Assembly: GCA_963718565.1 (NCBI GenBank)
Contig: OY970364.1
Location: 384,001-448,000 of the forward strand
Source: an uncultured Verrucomicrobiae bacterium
Lineage (GTDB): Bacteria; Chlamydiota; Chlamydiia; Chlamydiales; Rhabdochlamydiaceae
DNA: 64,000 bases
Direction of reading: 5' to 3'
Within the stretch, counting starts at the first letter, position 1; every line of letters begins with the position of its first letter. Positions 26,841 to 35,561 of the stretch are shown one piece after another. The notes beneath the pieces were generated by a model. It saw nothing but the letters and a program-made list of their open reading frames with translations, did not search any database and had not been told where the DNA came from. A program made the translations under genes and the position numbers.

Positions 26841-27437
26841 TTACTTGTATAAAACCTTTTGCAGTGTAAGAAGGGAAGGTGCCAGTGTTCGGTTGGGAAA
26901 TGTGTGGTAGCATACATTCCAAGTCATTGGACAGAGATGGGACAGTTCTCTCACAAGCGCTTCTTCTTCTCTTTTTCCCTCTTCATGGCCAGGATAGCAG
27001 GTGATACAGATGGCTCCGCTAGGGGAAATGAGGGCCATTGCCTTATTCACACTTGCTAAAGTGCTCCATGTCTGGGTTGTTATCTGTTTATTTCCTTTGG
27101 GAAGGTAGCCCAAATTATAGACGACGAGGCGCATAGGATTTTCCTCTACAATCGGAGGAAAGCATGCGTGGGATTGGCAATAGAGGTGGATGCGTGCTCG
27201 ATCTTTGGCAGGCAGCCGTGCTTGAAGGAGCATGTCTGTCTTTGTGATGGCTTCTTGCTGGAGATCGATGCCGATGACACCTCCCTGTTTTTCTCGCAGG
27301 ATTTCTGCGAGTTTGAGAGTATCATTGCCATTTCCACAGGTAGCGTCGATCGCCCAGCCCCCGTTGCGCAAAAGCTTTTCCCAATAGTGATGGGCAAGGT
27401 CGATGTGGGAATGAAATAAAGGGAAATTTCGGTTCAT
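26841..27437 (-). CDS. class I SAM-dependent methyltransferase (YtqB/MnmM-like)
   Basis: IDATCGNGNDT, YNLGYLPKG and YPGHEEG motifs. Confidence 0.87.
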   Translation of the reverse strand: MNRNFPLFHSHIDLAHHYWEKLLRNGGWAIDATCGNGNDTLKLAEILREKQGGVIGIDLQQEAITKTDMLLQARLPAKDRARIHLYCQSHACFPPIVEENPMRLVVYNLGYLPKGNKQITTQTWSTLASVNKAMALISPSGAICITCYPGHEEGKREEEALVRELSHLCPMTWNVCYHTFPNRTLAPSLLTLQKVLYK

Positions 27438-27514: not shown

Positions 27515-29059
27515 ATGCAAACAGAAGTGCTCATCATCGGATGCGGAATTGCGGGGTGCATTATTGCCCTTGAGCTTGCCGAAAAAGGGATTCAGGTGAT
27601 TTTGCTTGGTTCTAAGGGTGGTACTGAGTCCAATTCCCATTCTGCTCAAGGGGGGATTATCTTTCGCGGAAGCGGCGATTCTCAAGAGCTATTAAAGGAG
27701 GATATTCTTCAAGCAGGTTGTGGGTTGTGCAATCCAGAAGCTGTCGAGCTGCTCGTTCAGTGGGGCCCCAAACTTGTTCAAGAACTGCTGATTGATAAAT
27801 ACAAAGTTCCCTTTGACCGTGATGAAAACAGGGCTTTGAGTATGACTGCGGAAGGAGCGCATTCGATTCCTCGCATTATTTATCATCGTGATCAGACAGG
27901 AAAGGCGATCATGTCGGTTTTACTTGACGCTGTTAAAAATTCTCCCCATGTTCAATTCAAGCCCAATCATACGGCTGTCGATTTAATCACCCTTTCTCAT
28001 CATTCTAAAAAACGGACAGATATCTATGCTCTGTCGACTTGTGTCGGGGCCTATGTCATGGACAATTCTCGCTGTGCCATCGACATCTGCTTTGCTCAAG
28101 AGACGATCTTGGCGACAGGGGGGCTTGGCGAAATTTATCTTCATACGACAAATCCTAAAGAAGCTCGTGGAGATGGGGTTGCCATGGCCTATCGTGCTGG
28201 TGCCCGCATCATGAATATGGAGTATGTCCAGTTTCATCCTACCGCCTTGTATCTTCCTTTCGATCGCCGTTTTTTACTGAGCGAAGCGCTGCGCGGCGAA
28301 GGAGCTGAACTCTTGACGAACGGCTTTCAGTCCTTTATGCACCGATACCATGAAAAAGGTTCATTGGCTCCTCGAGACGTGACGGCTCGAGCGATCTATC
28401 AGGAGATGGTTCGCTGCGAGTCTCAGCACTTATGGTTGGATATGACAGGTACAGAGGCCCCTTATCTCAAACAGCGCTTTTCCAGCATTTACAACTATTG
28501 TCTAGAAAAAGGTTTCGATATGACGAAGGAACCGTTACCCGTCGTTCCAGCGGCTCATTATTCTTGTGGCGGAATTGCGGTGGATTCCAAAAGCCAGACG
28601 ACGATTCGACGACTGCGCGCCGTTGGCGAGGTCGCATGCACGGGATTGCATGGGGCAAATCGCCTGGCTTCGACATCCCTTTTAGAGGCACTAGTGTGGG
28701 GACAACTCTGTGTCGATGATCTCATTGCTGGAATGAGAGGACGCGATGATTATTTGCCGCCGATCGACCCTTGGGTCATGAGCGATGGAATCGCAGATAG
28801 TGCATTGATCCAACAAGATTGGATGACGATCAAGCAGACGATGTGGAACTATGTGGGTCTCGTGCGGGACAAGGCACGCCTTGACCGTGCCCATAGGATG
28901 CTGACCGAACTTAAGTGGGAGATCGAATCGTTTTACGACCGCTGCTGCCTGACGCCCGAGCTGCTTGGATTGCGCAATGGCGTCCAAACCGCTCTGCTTG
29001 TCACGCAAGGGGCGCTTCGCAATCGCGATTCCATCGGATGCCACTATCGCCTGAATTAG
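27515..29059 (+). CDS. nadB: L-aspartate oxidase
   Basis: GCGIAG, AQGGI, EGAHS, QFHPT, SEALRGEGA and GLHGANRLASTSLLE motifs. Confidence 0.95.
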   Translation: MQTEVLIIGCGIAGCIIALELAEKGIQVILLGSKGGTESNSHSAQGGIIFRGSGDSQELLKEDILQAGCGLCNPEAVELLVQWGPKLVQELLIDKYKVPFDRDENRALSMTAEGAHSIPRIIYHRDQTGKAIMSVLLDAVKNSPHVQFKPNHTAVDLITLSHHSKKRTDIYALSTCVGAYVMDNSRCAIDICFAQETILATGGLGEIYLHTTNPKEARGDGVAMAYRAGARIMNMEYVQFHPTALYLPFDRRFLLSEALRGEGAELLTNGFQSFMHRYHEKGSLAPRDVTARAIYQEMVRCESQHLWLDMTGTEAPYLKQRFSSIYNYCLEKGFDMTKEPLPVVPAAHYSCGGIAVDSKSQTTIRRLRAVGEVACTGLHGANRLASTSLLEALVWGQLCVDDLIAGMRGRDDYLPPIDPWVMSDGIADSALIQQDWMTIKQTMWNYVGLVRDKARLDRAHRMLTELKWEIESFYDRCCLTPELLGLRNGVQTALLVTQGALRNRDSIGCHYRLN

Positions 29060-29060
29060 A

Positions 29061-29242
29061 GAGGGAATTGCAAAACTCCTCGCCGCATAAAATCGCGCTT
29101 TTGACACCTGTCGCCTTGGCGGCGGCTCTCCTACTTATCCAAGTATGCTTTCGCCGCCGCTAACCGAACCCGCTGTGCGGGTTCTGGCAACAGGTGCCAA
29201 AATCATCGATTTTCTGCTGGCGAGGAGTTTTGCAATTCCCTC
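29061..29242. mobile_element. MITE family A, 182 bp
   Basis: TIR GAGGGAATTGCAAAACTCCTCGCC; TSD TAGA/TAGA, overlapping the nadB stop codon. Confidence 0.9.
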
Positions 29243-29311
29243 TAGAGTTTTTTGCTTGCTGGTAATTTCCTATTCCGGTTAAGATGCTCATCTTAAATTT
29301 GAAGTTTTGGT

Positions 29312-29385
29312 GGGGTATTAGCTCAGTTGGTTAGAGCGCCACGTTGACATCGTGGAGGTCAGCTGTTCGAGTCAGCTATATCCCA
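29312..29385 (+). tRNA. tRNA-Val(GAC)
   Basis: Cloverleaf; anticodon arm CCACG-TTGACAT-CGTGG; GTTCGA T-loop; CCA not encoded. Confidence 0.95.
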
Positions 29386-29393
29386 AAACGTTC

Positions 29394-30974
29394 ATGAAAA
29401 TTTCTTTTGAAAACCCCACACTTCCTCTTAATCACACTGCCGCAGCGCTTATGGCAACTGCGGTGGTTGAGCTTTTTCCTAAAACGCTTCTTGTCGATGG
29501 GCGAGGAACTTCTAAATATTTTTACTATGATTTTATTTTTCCCTTTGAGTTCACATCAGAGTTTTTGCCTCTCATCGAAGAGCGGATGCGTGTGATGATC
29601 AGGGAGAAAAGAACTGTCCGTCTTACGGAAATGATGCCGTCCAATGCTGCTATGCTCATGAAGCACCTCCATCAAGAAATTGTTGCGGATAGGCTGATGC
29701 AAGTCCAGCAAGCGACCGTCCACATCGTTCACATCAGTGGCTTTTCTGTTTTTTCCCCTGAGCCAACTCTAGAAGAGCTCTCTATTCCTTTTTTTAAAAT
29801 TCTCGAAGGGTTTTCCTGTGAAGCCTCTCAAAGAAAAGCGTTCCGAATTGTCGGTGCGGCTTCCTTGGATAAGGAACGGTTGAAAGAGATCGCTAAGCTG
29901 CCGCCTGTTTCCTTGCAATGCCATTGGAAATTGAGTTCAGAAATGGCCCTGTGCGAACCGATGGAAGAAACGGGGATGTGGTATTGGCGGCCAAATGGAG
30001 ACAAGCTCCGGCAAATCCTGATCAAGTTCTGGCAAGAAGAGCTGATGAAGCAAAAATTTGAGTTAATTTCCTCGCCAACCCCGTTTATCGAAGATGGAGG
30101 GGAGAAAAGCCTTCGTCACAGTCATCGCGAATATTTTTTTCGATTTGGCATCCTTAAGATTGCTGAAATGGCATGGATTTTGAATGAAGATTTTCGTGAT
30201 CCAAGCCTTGGCCTCTTCTCGCCAAAAGCCTTTTTTGGCGACCGTGCCCATCTCTTTTGTTCTACGGAGAAACTTTTAGAAGAATGTATTTCGTCCTTGC
30301 GTTTCATCCTTAAAATCCCTAAAATTCTGGGTTTTGAGTTCGAAATTGTCTTATCAGTTTCGAGCGTTAGTGCTCAAAAGGTGAAGGCAAAAGGAGTGGC
30401 TATTTTCCAGCAAGCGCTGGAAGAAGCCGGCCTTGACTATACTCTTGAAAAAGAGTATCGAGCAGGCACTGTAGCGAGCATTAATATTTGTTTTGCTGAT
30501 TCCTTGGGAAGAAAATGGGCGGGGCCTTTTTTGAGGTTGTCAGATGCCGCAATGCCCCTGGGAAAAGGCACAATGCTGACTGTTTCAGCATTTGGATCCT
30601 TAGAGAGGATCTGTGCATTGTTATTGGAGAACAAATGTGGATGGATTCCACTTTGGTTAGCACCGCAACAAGTACGGATCTTAGTTGCAACGCGTAAAGT
30701 AGACCGTTACGCAAAAGAAGTTCACGAGGCTTTGAGCGCTCAAGGCATTCGAGCAACACTGGAGAGCTGCGCAGAAAAGTTAAAAGCGCGCCTCTACCGT
30801 GCCATGCTTGAAAAAGTGCCTTATGTCCTTTTGCTCGGCGAGCGAGAGGAAAAAGCAGGGACGCTCACGGTGCGTGCTTATGGAGAGAATGAAGAGCAGG
30901 TTTTGTCCTTGGACGAATTCTGCGTGAGACTGAAAAGGGAAATTGAGAGTGGAATCTCTGAATTTAAGAATTAA
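29394..30974 (+). CDS. degenerate threonyl-tRNA synthetase-like protein
   Basis: ThrRS domain order (FYYDF editing domain, GSLER, WLAPQQV...VPY anticodon domain) but catalytic motifs eroded; start moved to ATG 29394 because 29352 lies inside the tRNA. Confidence 0.85.
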   Translation: MKISFENPTLPLNHTAAALMATAVVELFPKTLLVDGRGTSKYFYYDFIFPFEFTSEFLPLIEERMRVMIREKRTVRLTEMMPSNAAMLMKHLHQEIVADRLMQVQQATVHIVHISGFSVFSPEPTLEELSIPFFKILEGFSCEASQRKAFRIVGAASLDKERLKEIAKLPPVSLQCHWKLSSEMALCEPMEETGMWYWRPNGDKLRQILIKFWQEELMKQKFELISSPTPFIEDGGEKSLRHSHREYFFRFGILKIAEMAWILNEDFRDPSLGLFSPKAFFGDRAHLFCSTEKLLEECISSLRFILKIPKILGFEFEIVLSVSSVSAQKVKAKGVAIFQQALEEAGLDYTLEKEYRAGTVASINICFADSLGRKWAGPFLRLSDAAMPLGKGTMLTVSAFGSLERICALLLENKCGWIPLWLAPQQVRILVATRKVDRYAKEVHEALSAQGIRATLESCAEKLKARLYRAMLEKVPYVLLLGEREEKAGTLTVRAYGENEEQVLSLDEFCVRLKREIESGISEFKN

Positions 30975-31491
30975 TCGAGAAATCCGAGCTCCGAAAGTTC
31001 GCGTCATCGATAAAGATGGCGGCCAGGTCGGAGTGTTGACTTTAGCAGAAGCATTGGCCAAAGCAGAAGCAGCTGGTCTTGACCTGGTTGAGATTGCGCC
31101 ATCCGCGGATCCTCCTGTGTGCAAGATTATTGATTTCGGCAAATACCGTTATCAGTTAACAAAAAAAGAAAAAGAACAGAAGAAAACACAGCATCAAGTC
31201 AAAGTCAAAGAGATCAAAATCAAGCCGAATACGGATGAACATGATCTAGAGACGAAGATAAAGCATGCGAGAGAATTTATTGCCAAGGGAAACAAAGTCA
31301 GGTTGACTTGTGTTTTTCGCGGAAGGGAAATGCTCCATCCAGAATTTGGACAACGCCTCGTTCAACGCATATGCGATCACCTGTCTGATGTTGCTTCCCC
31401 AGAGGCGCCGCCAAAAATGTTCGGTCGCAATTTGTCGATTGTGTTAGCGCCTGGAGCAAAGAAAAAAACAGCAAATAGTGAAAGGATTTAA
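30943..31491 (+). CDS. infC: translation initiation factor IF-3
   Basis: INREIRAPKVRVI, LDLVEI, PPVCKIIDFGKY and FRGRE motifs; non-ATG start. Confidence 0.96.
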   Translation: MRVESLNLRINREIRAPKVRVIDKDGGQVGVLTLAEALAKAEAAGLDLVEIAPSADPPVCKIIDFGKYRYQLTKKEKEQKKTQHQVKVKEIKIKPNTDEHDLETKIKHAREFIAKGNKVRLTCVFRGREMLHPEFGQRLVQRICDHLSDVASPEAPPKMFGRNLSIVLAPGAKKKTANSERI

Positions 31492-31524
31492 GAAGTAGCT
31501 ATTGAAATTTACGGAGAAACTGTC

Positions 31525-31722
31525 GTGCCAAAAATGAAATCAAATAAAGCAGTGGCTGCGAGATTCAAAGTAACTGGGTCTGGCAAATTAGTCCGTCGTC
31601 ATCCCGGCCGCCGCCATATTTTGACCAAAAAAGCTGCGAAGCGCAAACGCCGTCTCAGAAAAGATGCTTTGGTCGATCAAGGACAAGTTAAAATGTATTC
31701 TCGTATGATGTTAGTAGGATAA
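31525..31722 (+). CDS. rpmI: 50S ribosomal protein L35
   Basis: MPKMKS...RFKVTGSGK...RHILTKK. Confidence 0.97.
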   Translation: MPKMKSNKAVAARFKVTGSGKLVRRHPGRRHILTKKAAKRKRRLRKDALVDQGQVKMYSRMMLVG

Positions 31723-31785
31723 TTAAAATTGAATGAAAAACGGAGCGCGGTATAGTATCGCCTCAGTAAAATTTGGAGAATTACA

Positions 31786-32142
31786 ATGGTAAGAGTCACC
31801 AACGCTGTGGCTGCCAATCGCAAACGCAAACGCCTTCTTAAACGAGCAAAAGGATTTGTCGGTGATCGAAAAAATCACCTGCGTTTGACATCAGATGCTG
31901 TGATGTCTGCTTTGGCATTTAATTATCGCCACCGCAAACAAAAGAAAAGAGATTTCAAACGCCTTTGGATCGTCCGCATTGGAGTCGGTGCAAAGATCAA
32001 CGGGATATCTTATAATAAACTCATCTCCGGTTTGAAGAAAACAGGTTGCGGGCTAAACCGCAAAATGTTGTCTGAGATGGCCTTAAGAGATCCAAGCAGT
32101 TTCGCAGCGATTGCCGGCACTGCTAAACAAGCCCTTGCTTAA
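31786..32142 (+). CDS. rplT: 50S ribosomal protein L20
   Basis: AKGF, RKQKKRDFKRLWIVRI and LNRKMLSEMA motifs. Confidence 0.97.
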   Translation: MVRVTNAVAANRKRKRLLKRAKGFVGDRKNHLRLTSDAVMSALAFNYRHRKQKKRDFKRLWIVRIGVGAKINGISYNKLISGLKKTGCGLNRKMLSEMALRDPSSFAAIAGTAKQALA

Positions 32143-32150
32143 GAAGTTCT

Positions 32151-32177
32151 ACCTGCACCTTAATCAAAGGTGCAGGT
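32151..32177 (+). terminator. hairpin between rplT and pheS
   Basis: ACCTGCACCTT-N5-AAGGTGCAGGT; weak U-tail. Confidence 0.5.
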
Positions 32178-32198
32178 CTCTCTACCCCAGGTCTTTTT

Positions 32199-33221
32199 GT
32201 GCAACAACAAGTATCGTCTCTTCGCAAGCAATTTCAAAGTGAACTTGGTCAAGTTCAGCACAGTAAGGAAGTGGAACAGCTCAAAGTCAAATACCTAGGT
32301 AAAAAAGGTCCCATTCAAGATCTGATGCAGCACTTGCGCAACGCGTCGCAAGAAATGCGCCCTCTCATCGGACAACAGATCAATGAGCTTAAAGAAGAAA
32401 TCTCGCAGCTATGCGAACAAGCCTTGCAAAGCTTTTCTCAGGTCGAGCTTGCTAGGCGTCTCAATGAAGAAAAGATCGATGTGACATTACCCGGACGACG
32501 ACGCTATCTCGGCAGAGAGCATCCCATCCATCAAGTTCTCAATGAAGTGATTCAGATCCTGATCGGCATGGGCTTTTCTGTCCAATATGGTCCCGATATT
32601 GATAGCGATTATTATAATTATGAGGGATTGAATTTTCCCTCCGATCACCCTGCTCGTGATATGCAGGACACTTTTTACATCACTAAAGACCTCCTGCTTC
32701 GCTCGCACACGTCCAATACGCAGCTGCGCGTGATGGAGAACCACAATCCGCCCATCCGCATTATCGCTCCCGGCACTGTTTACCGTAACGAGACAATCAG
32801 CAGCCGCTCCCACGTCTTCTTTCATCAAGTCGAAGGATTGTACATTGATAAGAATGTTTCCTTTGCCGATCTGTTTGCCACGATGGATGAATTCTTGAGC
32901 AAATTATTCCATACCAAAGTGACAACCCGTTTTCGCCCTAGCTACTTTCCTTTTGTCGAGCCTGGCCTTGAGGTCGATGTTGCCTGCACATCTTGCAACG
33001 GTAAAGGCTGCCGTCTCTGTAAGCAATCCGGATGGTTAGAAATTTGCGGCGCCGGGATGGTTCATCCCGAAGTCCTGAAAAATGGCGGGATCAACCCCGA
33101 AGAGTATAGCGGATATGCATGGGGCATGGGTATTGAGCGCATGGCAATGCTGCGCTATGGGATCAAAGATATCCGCATGTTTACAGAAAACGATCTCCGT
33201 TTTCTCGAACAGTTCGCTTGA
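32199..33221 (+). CDS. pheS: phenylalanine--tRNA ligase alpha subunit
   Basis: HPARDMQDTF, FHQVEG, RFRPSYFPFVEP and GMGIER motifs. Confidence 0.97.
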   Translation: MQQQVSSLRKQFQSELGQVQHSKEVEQLKVKYLGKKGPIQDLMQHLRNASQEMRPLIGQQINELKEEISQLCEQALQSFSQVELARRLNEEKIDVTLPGRRRYLGREHPIHQVLNEVIQILIGMGFSVQYGPDIDSDYYNYEGLNFPSDHPARDMQDTFYITKDLLLRSHTSNTQLRVMENHNPPIRIIAPGTVYRNETISSRSHVFFHQVEGLYIDKNVSFADLFATMDEFLSKLFHTKVTTRFRPSYFPFVEPGLEVDVACTSCNGKGCRLCKQSGWLEICGAGMVHPEVLKNGGINPEEYSGYAWGMGIERMAMLRYGIKDIRMFTENDLRFLEQFA

Positions 33222-33261
33222 AATTTATCTCAAGCCTGATATAATTTTTTCTTCTTTGATT

Positions 33262-33346
33262 GGAAGAGTGGCAGAGTGGCCGATTGCGTCTGTCTTGAAA
33301 ACAGAAGTCGGGAAACCGACCGTGGGTTCGAATCCTACCTCTTCCG
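33262..33346 (+). tRNA. tRNA-Ser(TGA)
   Basis: Anticodon arm TCTGT-CTTGAAA-ACAGA; long variable arm GTCGGGAAACCGAC; GGTTCGAATCC. Confidence 0.95.
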
Positions 33347-33379
33347 ACCTTTTTAACCTGAGTTTTTGGCTTGTTTTAT

Positions 33380-33407: not shown

Positions 33408-35561
33408 TCATTTATTAAAAGGCGAAAGAATTTCCTCGTATGCTCGGAAATAAAGATCCGCCTGCAAGGAGGTGGTTTTATCCATATCTCCAAGAATTAA
33501 ATCATAATTGTTATCACCATTATCCAATAACAGTTGATTATATCGTTGATTGACAAGCTCTCTGATATTCGAACTATATTTTACATTCTCTTGATGAAGC
33601 AGATCAAAAAAATGTGATGTAGAAATAGTCAATTCAATCGAATCATAGATGTGATATGGGGAAATTGCCTTTTTATAAGATTGATAATAGAGGTCTGGTC
33701 TTACTATGCTCGTATCTTGATCTAGACCCAAGAGTTCTAAATTTTCCCCTCCAGGAATGCAATGGTCCGTCAACCCGTTCTGCCGGAGCAGGCGATTGTA
33801 TTCATCATTCACCATCCCTCGAATATTTGCCTTGAATTTGATGTTTTTTTCATGGAGCGACCAAAAACAGTGCATTGTTGAAAAATCTTTTTCTAAGGTG
33901 TCCGAGCTTATTGATGGAGGAAGAATGAAATGAGCAATTGTTTCAGTGATTTTTCCGTTGATAATTTTGTAATTGTCGCCTTCCTGCCATATAGAATCAT
34001 TGATAAGAAATTTGTATTCCATATCTTCGAGTGGAAAAGGCGATCCATAAAGCCAAGTGGAATCATCATATCGAGTAAGTGGACACCCCTTCTCCCAACT
34101 CAATCCATTCCCACTCCCGCGAATAAAAAGTCGATGCCGAGGGGAGATTTTGTATGTGATGGCTATGGAGGTTGGCCGTGTGTTGATGGATGACCTATGC
34201 ACTATCAAGGGTATCCTATTTTTGTATAAACCTTCCGCTACGGAATATTTTCCAAGATTAAGACAGTTCTTTAAAAAACTGTGGGCTTCTTCTCCCTTTA
34301 TATTTTTGGCTACGAGATGTAAAAAAGCGTCATTTTTTCGAAAAGCATAACCTAGAGCAAGTCCGTCTTTCCAAGGAATAATTCCTTTTGAAAGTAAAAA
34401 ATCGCAAAAACATTGAGCCGTCTGTTCACAAGCATCAAAGCGACCCAAGGCTTGGGTGAGTGCTGATGGATCATATCCTTCTCCATCTTCTACAATAATC
34501 TGCTTCAACAATGAAATTTGGCTTTCTTTGCGCCAAGCATTAAAAATGCTTTTGGCTTCTCCCTTAGCTTTTCTTGTTCTTGTACTACTTGTTGAGTCTT
34601 CAATCATCATTGCAAATAGAGCACCCATAATACCCGCTTCAAAACTTGTCATAGCGCAGGAGCCTGAGCGTTGTCCAGGCAATTCTAAATCGAAAGAATA
34701 TCTGGTTGTGCTTTCTGGATAATATATTGCTACAAACGCAGAAAAAGAATGAAATGGAGATTCCGGTTTAATAAACCTAGTTCCAGGAATAATACTTCCC
34801 ATGCCCCGATTACCCACAATAATCCAGGGGGAATCCATCAAAACAATATTGATCCAATGCCTGTGATCAAAGACAGAAGTGTCGGAAAGAAAAAGACTGC
34901 CTTTATTTTTTTCATATTGGTCTGCCTTAGATTGTTCCGTATGACAGGATGTGCAAGACGATGTCTCAAGCAATGAAATCAGCCTTTGCGTTTTTTCTGA
35001 GTTCCAATTTTCACTCTTGTATTCGGCAAGGAACTGTTTCAAAGAATCGATCATCCATTTCACTAGATATTGATGATGAACAAAATGATCTAGTCCATCA
35101 CTAAAAGCATGGCCTTCTAAATTAAAACCGCCTAATTCGAATTGTAATGTTAAGCGTTTGTTTTTAATATAATTTTCAGTGAAGTTTCCATCAGAGTCCT
35201 TTAACAGGGATGCGATCTCATGATAATTGCATTCTTGTGCATAAATATAAGGAGTGCAATTCACGGTTTCAGTCAGATGAGAACGATTCATGCGTAATTT
35301 TGCAGAAGCCCCTTGCTGGAGTAGTCTTTTCACAGCCTCTACTTGATTTGTTCTTATTGCGATAAGTAAAGGATGACATTTATCTGAAATTAATCGTTCT
35401 TTCCATGGTTTGCTCACTAAACAACAATTTCCCCAATCGGCAATGTTTAGATAAGAAAAAATTTCCAAAATCGGTTTTTCTTGAGCTGTAACTTCATAAT
35501 TGAAGAACTGATCTATTAAATAATAAATGGGGTCTCGTAACTTTCCTAAATTAATTGACAC
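33408..35561 (-). CDS. multidomain candidate effector: F-box-like + ankyrin + Cys/His core + CBM20-like domain
   Basis: IFSYLNIADWGNCCLVSKPW; HPLLIAIRTNQVEAVKRLLQQGA; QRSGSC; LFIRGSGNGLSWEKG...MEYKFLINDSIWQEGDN. Confidence 0.8.
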   Translation of the reverse strand: MSINLGKLRDPIYYLIDQFFNYEVTAQEKPILEIFSYLNIADWGNCCLVSKPWKERLISDKCHPLLIAIRTNQVEAVKRLLQQGASAKLRMNRSHLTETVNCTPYIYAQECNYHEIASLLKDSDGNFTENYIKNKRLTLQFELGGFNLEGHAFSDGLDHFVHHQYLVKWMIDSLKQFLAEYKSENWNSEKTQRLISLLETSSCTSCHTEQSKADQYEKNKGSLFLSDTSVFDHRHWINIVLMDSPWIIVGNRGMGSIIPGTRFIKPESPFHSFSAFVAIYYPESTTRYSFDLELPGQRSGSCAMTSFEAGIMGALFAMMIEDSTSSTRTRKAKGEAKSIFNAWRKESQISLLKQIIVEDGEGYDPSALTQALGRFDACEQTAQCFCDFLLSKGIIPWKDGLALGYAFRKNDAFLHLVAKNIKGEEAHSFLKNCLNLGKYSVAEGLYKNRIPLIVHRSSINTRPTSIAITYKISPRHRLFIRGSGNGLSWEKGCPLTRYDDSTWLYGSPFPLEDMEYKFLINDSIWQEGDNYKIINGKITETIAHFILPPSISSDTLEKDFSTMHCFWSLHEKNIKFKANIRGMVNDEYNRLLRQNGLTDHCIPGGENLELLGLDQDTSIVRPDLYYQSYKKAISPYHIYDSIELTISTSHFFDLLHQENVKYSSNIRELVNQRYNQLLLDNGDNNYDLILGDMDKTTSLQADLYFRAYEEILSPFNK

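Follow-up and report, generated by a model that had tools for sequence, protein, structure and literature searches.

The 64,000-nucleotide (nt) stretch of chlamydial DNA analysed here (the window, from the genome G000) carries on its forward strand, at 29394..30974, a gene for a 526-residue protein (P0001) that is related to threonyl-tRNA synthetase (ThrRS) and lies between a tRNA-Val gene and infC, the gene for initiation factor IF3. Judged from its sequence, the protein is a pseudo-enzyme, a ThrRS paralogue that would perform neither aminoacylation nor editing, tRNA-Thr being charged by a canonical thrS elsewhere in the genome. We favour a reading, at a probability of about 0.6, in which this pseudo-enzyme has been retained in the ancestral thrS position, serves as a cis-regulatory platform for the genes downstream, and has a non-catalytic RNA-binding or scaffolding role that we infer for the protein itself. 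Three features add to an initial annotation of the same DNA: a predicted promoter within the coding sequence, a probable infC start embedded in its end, and a start codon that abuts the tRNA gene. That annotation had missed the cis-elements of the infC operon in the gene body; these tie the gene in cis to an operon with which it had suspected a link only in trans.

A ThrRS paralogue with most catalytic residues lost

The open reading frame (ORF) runs from an ATG at 29394 to a TAA at 30972–30974 with no internal stop, as the initial annotation had described, and its assignment of a ThrRS domain order also holds. P0001 is colinear with E. coli ThrRS (1qf6) and with the canonical ThrRS of its own genome from the N2 editing domain to the C-terminus, at 21–23% identity. 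An AlphaFold2 model computed with 62 family members as input reached a pLDDT of 89.7 and a pTM of 0.88, and a Foldseek search with this model returned 1qf6_A as best match (E 4.7e-41; 1nyq was matched with a TM score of 0.71), and a chance reading frame can thus be dismissed. All three parts of the ThrRS fold are represented: an N2 (editing-domain-like) part (residues 1–170, 29394..29903), a degenerate class II core in which the motif-1 region and GSLER are kept (residues 171–415, 29904..30638), and a class IIa anticodon-binding domain (residues 416–526, 30639..30971). Pfam detects the last of these alone (HGTP_anticodon, PF03129, residues 426–514, E 6.6e-16), and the NCBIfam model of Ser-tRNA(Thr) hydrolase likewise matches only that domain. 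With the NCBIfam thrS model TIGR00418, P0001 scores 184.7 bits in two stretches, below the cut-off of 383.65. A TGS domain (PF02824), also reported missing at the outset, was not found by Pfam, and the alignment begins at canonical residue 58 or later. This absence alone is not decisive, as some active ThrRS lack TGS (e.g. P0100, 579 aa).

The residues required for chemistry were checked against 1qf6, the genome's own canonical ThrRS, a 121-row alignment and a motif table of 32 homologues. In the window copy the editing HxxxH reads HTAAA, CxxxH is lost, and SVFSPEP stands in place of the DLCRGPH segment; motif 2 reads WILNEDFRDPSLGLFSPKAF, with LNED where HRxE is expected, so that its Arg and Glu are gone; YGPK and both Gln of QxxxxQ are replaced. 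These observations bear out the degeneration of the editing site and of motif 2 first noted by eye. For zinc binding the earlier description needs a minor correction. The ligands, which we take to be C334, H385 and H511 in E. coli numbering, were placed from the 1qf6 alignment: the KPMNCP stretch with the C334 loop falls in a deletion and the motif-3 His (H511) is a Thr, both as claimed, but the equivalent of H385 (in DRAH) is kept as H286. Also kept, in agreement with the initial annotation, are the motif-3 Arg in GSLER and the signatures of the anticodon-binding domain (PLWLAPQQV ... KVPYVLLLGEREE ... TVR).

The losses are shared by the family. Among the 32 tabulated homologues from the same position, HxxxH is intact in none and CxxxH in two (G030, G032), the motif-2 Arg survives in a single copy (G019), and neither KPMNCP nor a clearly aligned Zn-Cys occurs in any, G038 showing a Cys that aligns ambiguously. 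The catalytic set is lacking in all 32 and likewise in the least diverged database members, which still match the Pfam core domain; inactivation would therefore be older than the split of these families. The canonical thrS that had been predicted to exist elsewhere was found 1.36 Mb away (G000:C1:1772674-1774602). It encodes 642 residues with TGS, HTSAH, DLCRGPH, KPMNCP and HRHE, and scores 679.9 bits with TIGR00418. The copy upstream of infC would thus not be the ThrRS of the cell: it has an active paralogue, has lost its catalytic residues, remains intact as an ORF and is under purifying selection across species.

We refer to the position between tRNA-Val and infC as the slot. A protein search with P0001 retrieves about 95 relatives of the slot type before ordinary ThrRS begin. 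Of 41 relatives' genomes searched (G000 included), 36 have a homologue directly upstream of infC, and in 32 of these the slot ORF is intact, measuring 337–621 aa from stop to stop and always preceded by tRNA-Val. Within the genus, 17 of 19 genomes have an intact slot ORF; single stops in G006, G018 and G001 merely define slightly earlier ends of open 495–520-aa ORFs. The other two (G013, G016) contain stops in the slot gene, which we do not count as pseudogenisation because the genes for IF3 and L35 are also split in these assemblies. The corresponding loci (L021, L025) look error-rich in general, with frameshifts and stops in the genes for pseudo-ThrRS, IF3 and L35. Two further genomes hold slot remnants matched by profile only (G025, E 5e-26; G037, E 4e-8). 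The gene is absent from three (G022, G028, G026), in which tRNA-Val adjoins infC with nothing between; the remaining two fell outside the assessment, G024 yielding no IF3 match and G036 having the gene cut at contig ends.

The order tRNA-Val, slot ORF, infC-rpmI-rplT-pheS is common to the relatives. At the scale of the phylum, at least 43 of 161 genomes have a strong second, shorter ThrRS-like ORF, and there are 239 weaker matches besides. In family f20, three of three genomes checked (1.0–1.4 Mb, presumably Chlamydiaceae-like) have neither a slot ORF nor a tRNA upstream of infC. A family-specific peptide pattern, searched over the genomes of 185,579 species, was found at 42 loci, all in metagenome-assembled genomes whose titles are chlamydial or, as given by the submitters, read Verrucomicrobia, Acidobacteria or “bacterium”. 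Homologues that are 55–60% identical occur in genomes titled Verrucomicrobia or Acidobacteria (L089–L094, L096, L098), and these labels look wrong. In a 1.3-Mb genome (G121), a 240-aa ORF without detectable similarity to the family is found between tRNA-Val and infC (L083, reverse strand, 442–1161).

In a tree of 13 of the 32 slot sequences (the rest being omitted for speed or shortness) and 21 canonical chlamydial ThrRS, the slot sequences form one clade (support of 100 in the Shimodaira–Hasegawa-like approximate likelihood ratio test, SH-aLRT), apart from all active ThrRS. The canonical chlamydial enzymes form their own clade (100), and a branch of 1.41 separates the two. Forcing both clades together was not rejected by the approximately unbiased test (p-AU 0.40), which leaves undecided whether the gene was duplicated within the chlamydiae or the ancestral gene was displaced by an acquired thrS. 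The slot family has a single origin; its members occur in many chlamydial families and occupy no other position.

Predicted expression signals of infC inside the gene

Synonymous-codon diversity averages 0.67 over the gene, drops to 0.18–0.27 at codons 288–327 and drops again at codons 500–526. The first dip contains a nucleotide-conserved block of about 100 nt (30267..30365, codons 292–324), which in the codon alignment is nearly identical between species whose synonymous divergence (dS) exceeds 1 elsewhere. Only two hexamers and their spacing persist across families, in the pattern ATTTCnTCC-TTGCAA-17 nt-TAAAAT (or TAAGAT, TACAAT, TAAACT) on the coding strand. We read codons 299–311 as a sigma-70-type promoter for the infC operon (30288..30325), with a predicted −35 element TTGCGT at 30297–30302, where most relatives have TTGCAA, a 17-nt spacer and a predicted −10 element TAAAAT at 30320–30325. 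The motif is present at homologous codons in 28 of 32 loci, and its spacer is always 17 nt long. The window copy matches 8 of 12 consensus positions; a simple promoter scan did not list it.

That these hexamers, set 17 ± 1 nt apart, are conserved beyond what coding requires is seen in the use of individual codons. A screen of 28 loci gave an in-frame match in 27, and none in G023. Leu302 is encoded by TTG in 27 of 27 loci, although TTG makes up a fraction of just 0.20 among the Leu codons of these ORFs; Ser301 is TCC in all 24 cases where the residue is Ser (background 0.19), and Phe304 is TTC in all 25 cases of Phe (background 0.31). The neighbouring Ser300 uses four different codons. Residue 310 varies between K, T, R and N, and the −10 element remains TAnnAT or TAnnnT, of which the T, the A and the final T were preset by the search pattern. 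Of 401 genomes in the phylum, 144 contain the promoter pattern in a single copy and none contains a reversed-pattern control; by family, the promoter pattern was found in 36 of 46 genomes of f22, 57 of 89 of f1 and 0 of 30 of f20. It lies 291–727 nt upstream of infC across genomes. In the window, transcription would start near 30332, 618 nt before the infC match.

Two further candidate features of this region were rejected. A hairpin following the predicted start site (about 30338–30365; z = −2.3) pairs at 89.8% of positions compared with 88.8% in shuffled sequences (82 of 500 as high, 17 sequences) and has no covariation support. Homology to the intragenic infC promoters of E. coli was also dismissed, as the homologous codons of E. 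coli thrS contain nothing that resembles a promoter. A search of 29000–32300 with Rfam, at E values up to 10, returned the tRNA and chance-level matches only, with none in the conserved block and no L20-leader. No RNA sequencing run was listed for 29250–31550.

The 5' end of the gene is closely tied to the tRNA. The tRNA-Val gene (anticodon GAC, CCA not encoded) lies at 29311..29386 according to ARAGORN (Rfam RF00005, 29312–29385, 66.8 bits), and the ATG of the pseudo-ThrRS gene follows 7 nt after its annotated end. This gap lacks a Shine-Dalgarno sequence, as do the gaps of 0–15 nt at 24 of 32 loci (0 nt in G009, 2 nt in G015), so that excision of tRNA-Val would leave a leaderless or nearly leaderless mRNA. 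Before the tRNA there is a promoter-like site of its own at 29256..29285 (TTGCTG 29256–29261, 18 nt, TAAGAT 29280–29285). TTGnnn-18-TAnnnT occurs at a similar distance in 15 of 17 same-family loci examined, with the forms TTGCCG/TTGCTG-18-TATGAT/TAAGAT, and some promoter-like site precedes tRNA-Val in 22 of 25 loci examined overall. A full-length RNase Z-like match is encoded elsewhere in the genome (G000:C1:1512362-1513234); at 292.2 bits it is 0.75 under the cut-off of 292.95.

At the 3' end, the ORF overlaps infC (30943..31491), and the overlap that had been claimed is found with every candidate start: 32 nt with TTG 30943, 26 nt with GTG 30949, 17 nt with CTG 30958 and 5 nt with ATT 30970. 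The second synonymous dip, at codons 500–526, covers these infC signals. The TTG start used in other families (TTG-AGA-ATT-AAT) is mutated in this genus, and 3 of 15 genus genomes have no in-frame ATG, GTG or TTG for infC. A CTG with GGAG or GAGAG 8 nt upstream is present in 15 of 15, as it is in the window at 30958, and an ATT overlapping the stop codon as ATTAA in 14 of 15. Given the missing canonical codons and the conserved CTG and ATT, infC of this genus probably starts at a non-canonical codon within the last codons of the pseudo-ThrRS gene. With its predicted internal promoter and with the putative ribosome-binding site and start of infC, the gene appears to double as a cis-regulatory platform for the IF3 operon.

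Selection and a possible role of the protein

Among the 15 full-length orthologues of the genus, 92 pairs had a usable dS, and in the 25 least diverged of them the ratio of nonsynonymous to synonymous substitution (dN/dS, omega; NG86) was 0.14–0.24. In six pairs analysed by domain, omega was 0.11–0.19 in the N2-like part, 0.17–0.31 in the core and 0.12–0.28 in the anticodon-binding domain, whereas the canonical ThrRS of these pairs gave 0.037–0.063. When both DNA-constrained blocks were masked, omega of the slot protein was 0.15–0.22. Purifying selection thus acts on the slot protein, at a strength about four to five times below that on the real enzyme. The initial annotation had proposed that the gene is kept by selection, and these values, ranging from 0.11 to 0.31 per domain, agree with this: it is not the only thrS of the genome, left to charge tRNA-Thr, and its orthologues show neither a dN/dS near 1 nor frequent disruption.

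In the reading that we favour, the protein would act without catalysis as a ThrRS-like homodimer, which would bind RNA or scaffold a translation component by means of its N2-like domain and core; the anticodon-binding domain, where present, may add affinity for a tRNA-Thr-like anticodon arm. Since the slot gene has been shortened or deleted in lineages whose genomes are reduced, the protein would have an accessory function. A non-catalytic role is suggested by the purifying selection on the N2-like domain, in which no cis-element was detected, and by retention of the gene over family-level divergence. The N2-like part is retained even in the shortest homologues, and the hidden Markov model matches of remnants fall mainly at profile positions 9–227; some lineages keep only this domain and a vestigial core.

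A homodimer model of residues 171–526 gave an ipSAE of 0.83, against 0.00 for the best of three controls, and three runs shared at least 97% of contacts with a partner pLDDT of at least 86. In calibration, the mark used was reached by 20 of 30 solved one-chain pairs and by 1 of 23 solved single chains; ThrRS dimers are already among the solved structures, so the result may reflect likeness only. The predicted interface (residues 188–281) takes in the motif-1 region, where W196 and W198 are near-invariant and, like G202, L209 and W213, conserved at 90% or more. Within the anticodon-binding domain, all 62 family members share E485, and at least 90% of them have R494; the two residues align with E. 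coli E600 and R609, presumably the residues that read G35 and U36. PMC4756836 backs this in general terms only, and the E. coli anticodon-loop contacts that it names are N575, D549, R583 and R589.

Several observations weigh against such a role. Of the named contacts, N575, D549 and R583 are replaced (A460, R434, Y468) and R589 is changed conservatively to Lys, and P0001 is a neutral protein (pI 7.14) with no basic bias. A tRNA or operator-mimic mechanism would depend on the anticodon-binding domain, yet several lineages have lost this domain independently while the remainder of the gene persists: it is missing from G007 and G008 (of the same genus, with genomes of 1.3–1.4 Mb), from G020 and G029, from several f23 genomes and from others. 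Binding of an anticodon arm therefore cannot be the common function of the family. The whole slot gene is gone in G022, G028 and G026 and from upstream of infC in the three f20 genomes checked, and is thus dispensable. The most strikingly conserved peptide, ISSLQFI..K..KI, is explained by constraint on the DNA, which removes part of the apparent protein conservation, and purifying selection of the strength observed could stem from the avoidance of misfolding in an obligate product. A promoter-like motif ending in TACAAT stands about 25–35 nt before the ATG of the canonical thrS in 8 of 12 genus-mates, as read by eye with starts called on the homologous N-terminus; it is missing in G000 and G017, and in G002, G009 and G014 no start was called and the stretch was mis-anchored. 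If this motif is a promoter, it leaves no room for an operator of the E. coli type before the canonical thrS. The role of RNA regulator put forward in the initial annotation is thereby partly weakened.

The main alternative is that the ORF is a translated relic with no protein function, an old gene that became undeletable after a second thrS had taken over. It would carry the promoter, ribosome-binding site and start of infC and be transcribed from the strong tRNA-Val promoter; its frame would be kept open against polarity on infC and in order to deliver ribosomes to the overlapping start, its sequence would be constrained only enough for harmless folding, and it would shrink in-frame until the infC signals are re-created beside the tRNA. 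The location of the cis-elements inside the ORF fits this, as does the series of in-frame losses (the Zn loop, a 12-residue deletion, the anticodon-binding domain, remnants of 337–391 aa) that ends in the complete loss of the gene in G022, where tRNA-Val is 64 nt from infC. Reading of the alignments, without tabulation, showed no new conserved polar cluster, the conserved residues being mostly inherited structural ones of ThrRS, and the slot protein evolves 4–5 times faster than the real enzyme. We nevertheless consider such a relic unlikely. The N2-like domain, with its omega of 0.11–0.19, has no detected cis-element and is recognisable at E values of 1e-24 to 1e-43 in the most eroded remnants, where the promoter motif is absent. 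In many families the ORF ends 9–157 nt before infC, which has its own TTG start, so that translational coupling is not general, and streamlined genomes of 1.3–2.4 Mb retain more than 1 kb of the slot gene. A speculative reading, which we regard as improbable, takes the locus to be an IF3-sensing device made from a dead synthetase gene; it is suggested by the near-leaderless upstream ORF, the probable CUG or AUU start of infC and the overlap at that start in this genus. In E. coli, according to PMC2268962, IF3 inhibits initiation on leaderless mRNAs and at non-canonical start codons, as well as re-initiation where a Shine-Dalgarno sequence is lacking. With tRNA-Val and pseudo-ThrRS co-transcribed, excision of the tRNA would place the AUG 0–15 nt from the 5' end of the mRNA, a bacterial version of mitochondrial tRNA punctuation, and the overlapping infC start, which in the window has a GGAG-like motif 8 nt before it, may be reached by coupled re-initiation. 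A shortage of IF3 would let ribosomes load on the leaderless ORF, and after translating it in full they would start again at the overlapping infC start, so that IF3 is restored; the long ORF would be kept as a conveyor, along with a product that folds harmlessly and perhaps binds RNA.

Two other proposals assign the protein a role of a different kind. As a regulatory pseudo-subunit, the dead copy would pair with canonical ThrRS through the class II interface and modulate its activity, editing or localisation. In favour of this, the motif-1 dimer region ranks with the parts that are best conserved, the homodimer model confidently predicts an interface like that of ThrRS dimers, both genes occur together in all 15 genus-mates with a full-length copy, and PMC5201418 and PMC3663545 provide precedents of dead and active partners in other enzymes. 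The interface residues differ between the two proteins, however (WYWRPNG vs canonical PFIHPKG), and, judged from the tree, canonical ThrRS is equally conserved where the dead copy has been lost; we regard this pairing as improbable. It is extremely unlikely that the protein is still an enzyme, be it a highly divergent ThrRS or a ligase or hydrolase acting on a new substrate in a remodelled pocket. The GSLER Arg, the Asp and His of DRAH and the D-x-x-G-R-x-W strand are kept, and YadB, a paralogue of an aminoacyl-tRNA synthetase (aaRS), is described as an enzyme in PMC7373986. Against this, the motif-2 Arg and Glu, the Zn Cys, His511, Y462/K465 and Q479/Q484 are replaced or deleted family-wide, the TIGR00418 score is less than half of the cut-off, and the residues that lined the former pocket are not newly conserved.

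Related systems and neighbouring genes

The closest parallel is E. coli thrS itself. The E. coli enzyme (1qf6) shares the fold and the domain order of P0001 from N2 to the anticodon-binding domain, and its gene holds the same position in the thrS-infC-rpmI-rplT operon as the slot copy does upstream of infC-rpmI-rplT-pheS. According to PMC6511841, E. coli infC is transcribed from PthrS and from P0 and P0' inside thrS, so that thrS likewise embeds expression signals of infC. The slot copy differs in the absence of TGS, the Zn site, the motif-2 Arg and the editing residues and in scoring under half of the family cut-off; its promoter-like site is at codon 302, whereas the sole TTGnnn-17-TAnnnT site of E. 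coli thrS is at codon 573, and it is preceded by tRNA-Val (with a gap of 0–15 nt) rather than by an operator leader.

Split archaeal ThrRS and free-standing editing proteins each keep one activity, catalysis or editing. They resemble P0001 in being ThrRS-derived with a reduced domain set (Aeropyrum pernix ThrRS-1, 3a31, was Foldseek rank 50, E 1.5e-18), but P0001 has lost the signature residues of both activities. Few non-catalytic aaRS paralogues are known, and every one of them has brought unexpected biology to light, for example HisZ, the HisRS-like regulatory subunit of ATP phosphoribosyltransferase. HisZ works with a known partner in a known pathway and is not known to have an anticodon-binding domain; its likeness to P0001, compared by description, is at the level of the class II fold. 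As PMC7373986 describes it, HisZ is a class IIa synthetase paralogue that performs no aminoacylation and has been retained in a different role. The slot gene, by contrast, stays in a translation operon and has ThrRS as its parent enzyme. B. subtilis thrZ is also a second thrS-like gene in one genome, but it encodes a working synthetase according to PMC3997798, unlike the chlamydial slot copies with their missing catalytic set. No ThrRS-derived case surfaced in the literature on bacterial aaRS pseudo-enzymes, and no ThrRS-derived pseudo-enzyme was found for chlamydiae in literature whose coverage excluded most subscription journals.

The named members of the family in databases are mostly called “threonyl-tRNA synthetase”, “Threonine--tRNA ligase 2” or “hypothetical”, and should not be counted as ThrRS. 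The second of these labels, borne by P0082 in NCBI/UniRef and presumably automatic, is misleading because the slot copies lack the catalytic set. The family offers a natural series on the scale of a phylum, from a near-complete shell of 621 aa through remnants of 337 aa to full deletion; with its fixed position and an active thrS in every genome as an internal control, it lends itself well to the question of why dead enzymes are maintained. If the embedded promoter is read correctly, it illustrates how a gene can become entrenched by expression signals of its neighbour that lie inside it. It also cautions that a DNA element may be what lies behind a conserved protein motif.

Downstream of infC the conserved cluster continues on the same strand with rpmI (31525–31722), rplT (31786–32142), pheS (32199–33221) and tRNA-Ser(UGA) (33261–33349), together spanning 31525..33349. 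Upstream of tRNA-Val there is a 514-aa ORF for a flavin adenine dinucleotide (FAD) enzyme, L-aspartate oxidase-like by eye (27515–29059, forward strand), and before it a 198-aa ORF on the reverse strand (26841–27437) that resembles a methyltransferase, again by eye. In G028 the order of oxidase-like ORF, tRNA-Val and infC is kept although the pseudo-ThrRS gene is deleted. On the reverse strand at 33408–35561, a 717-aa ORF has the N-terminus ILEIFSYLNIADWGNCCLVSKPWKERL, which may resemble an F-box motif followed by a repeat region.

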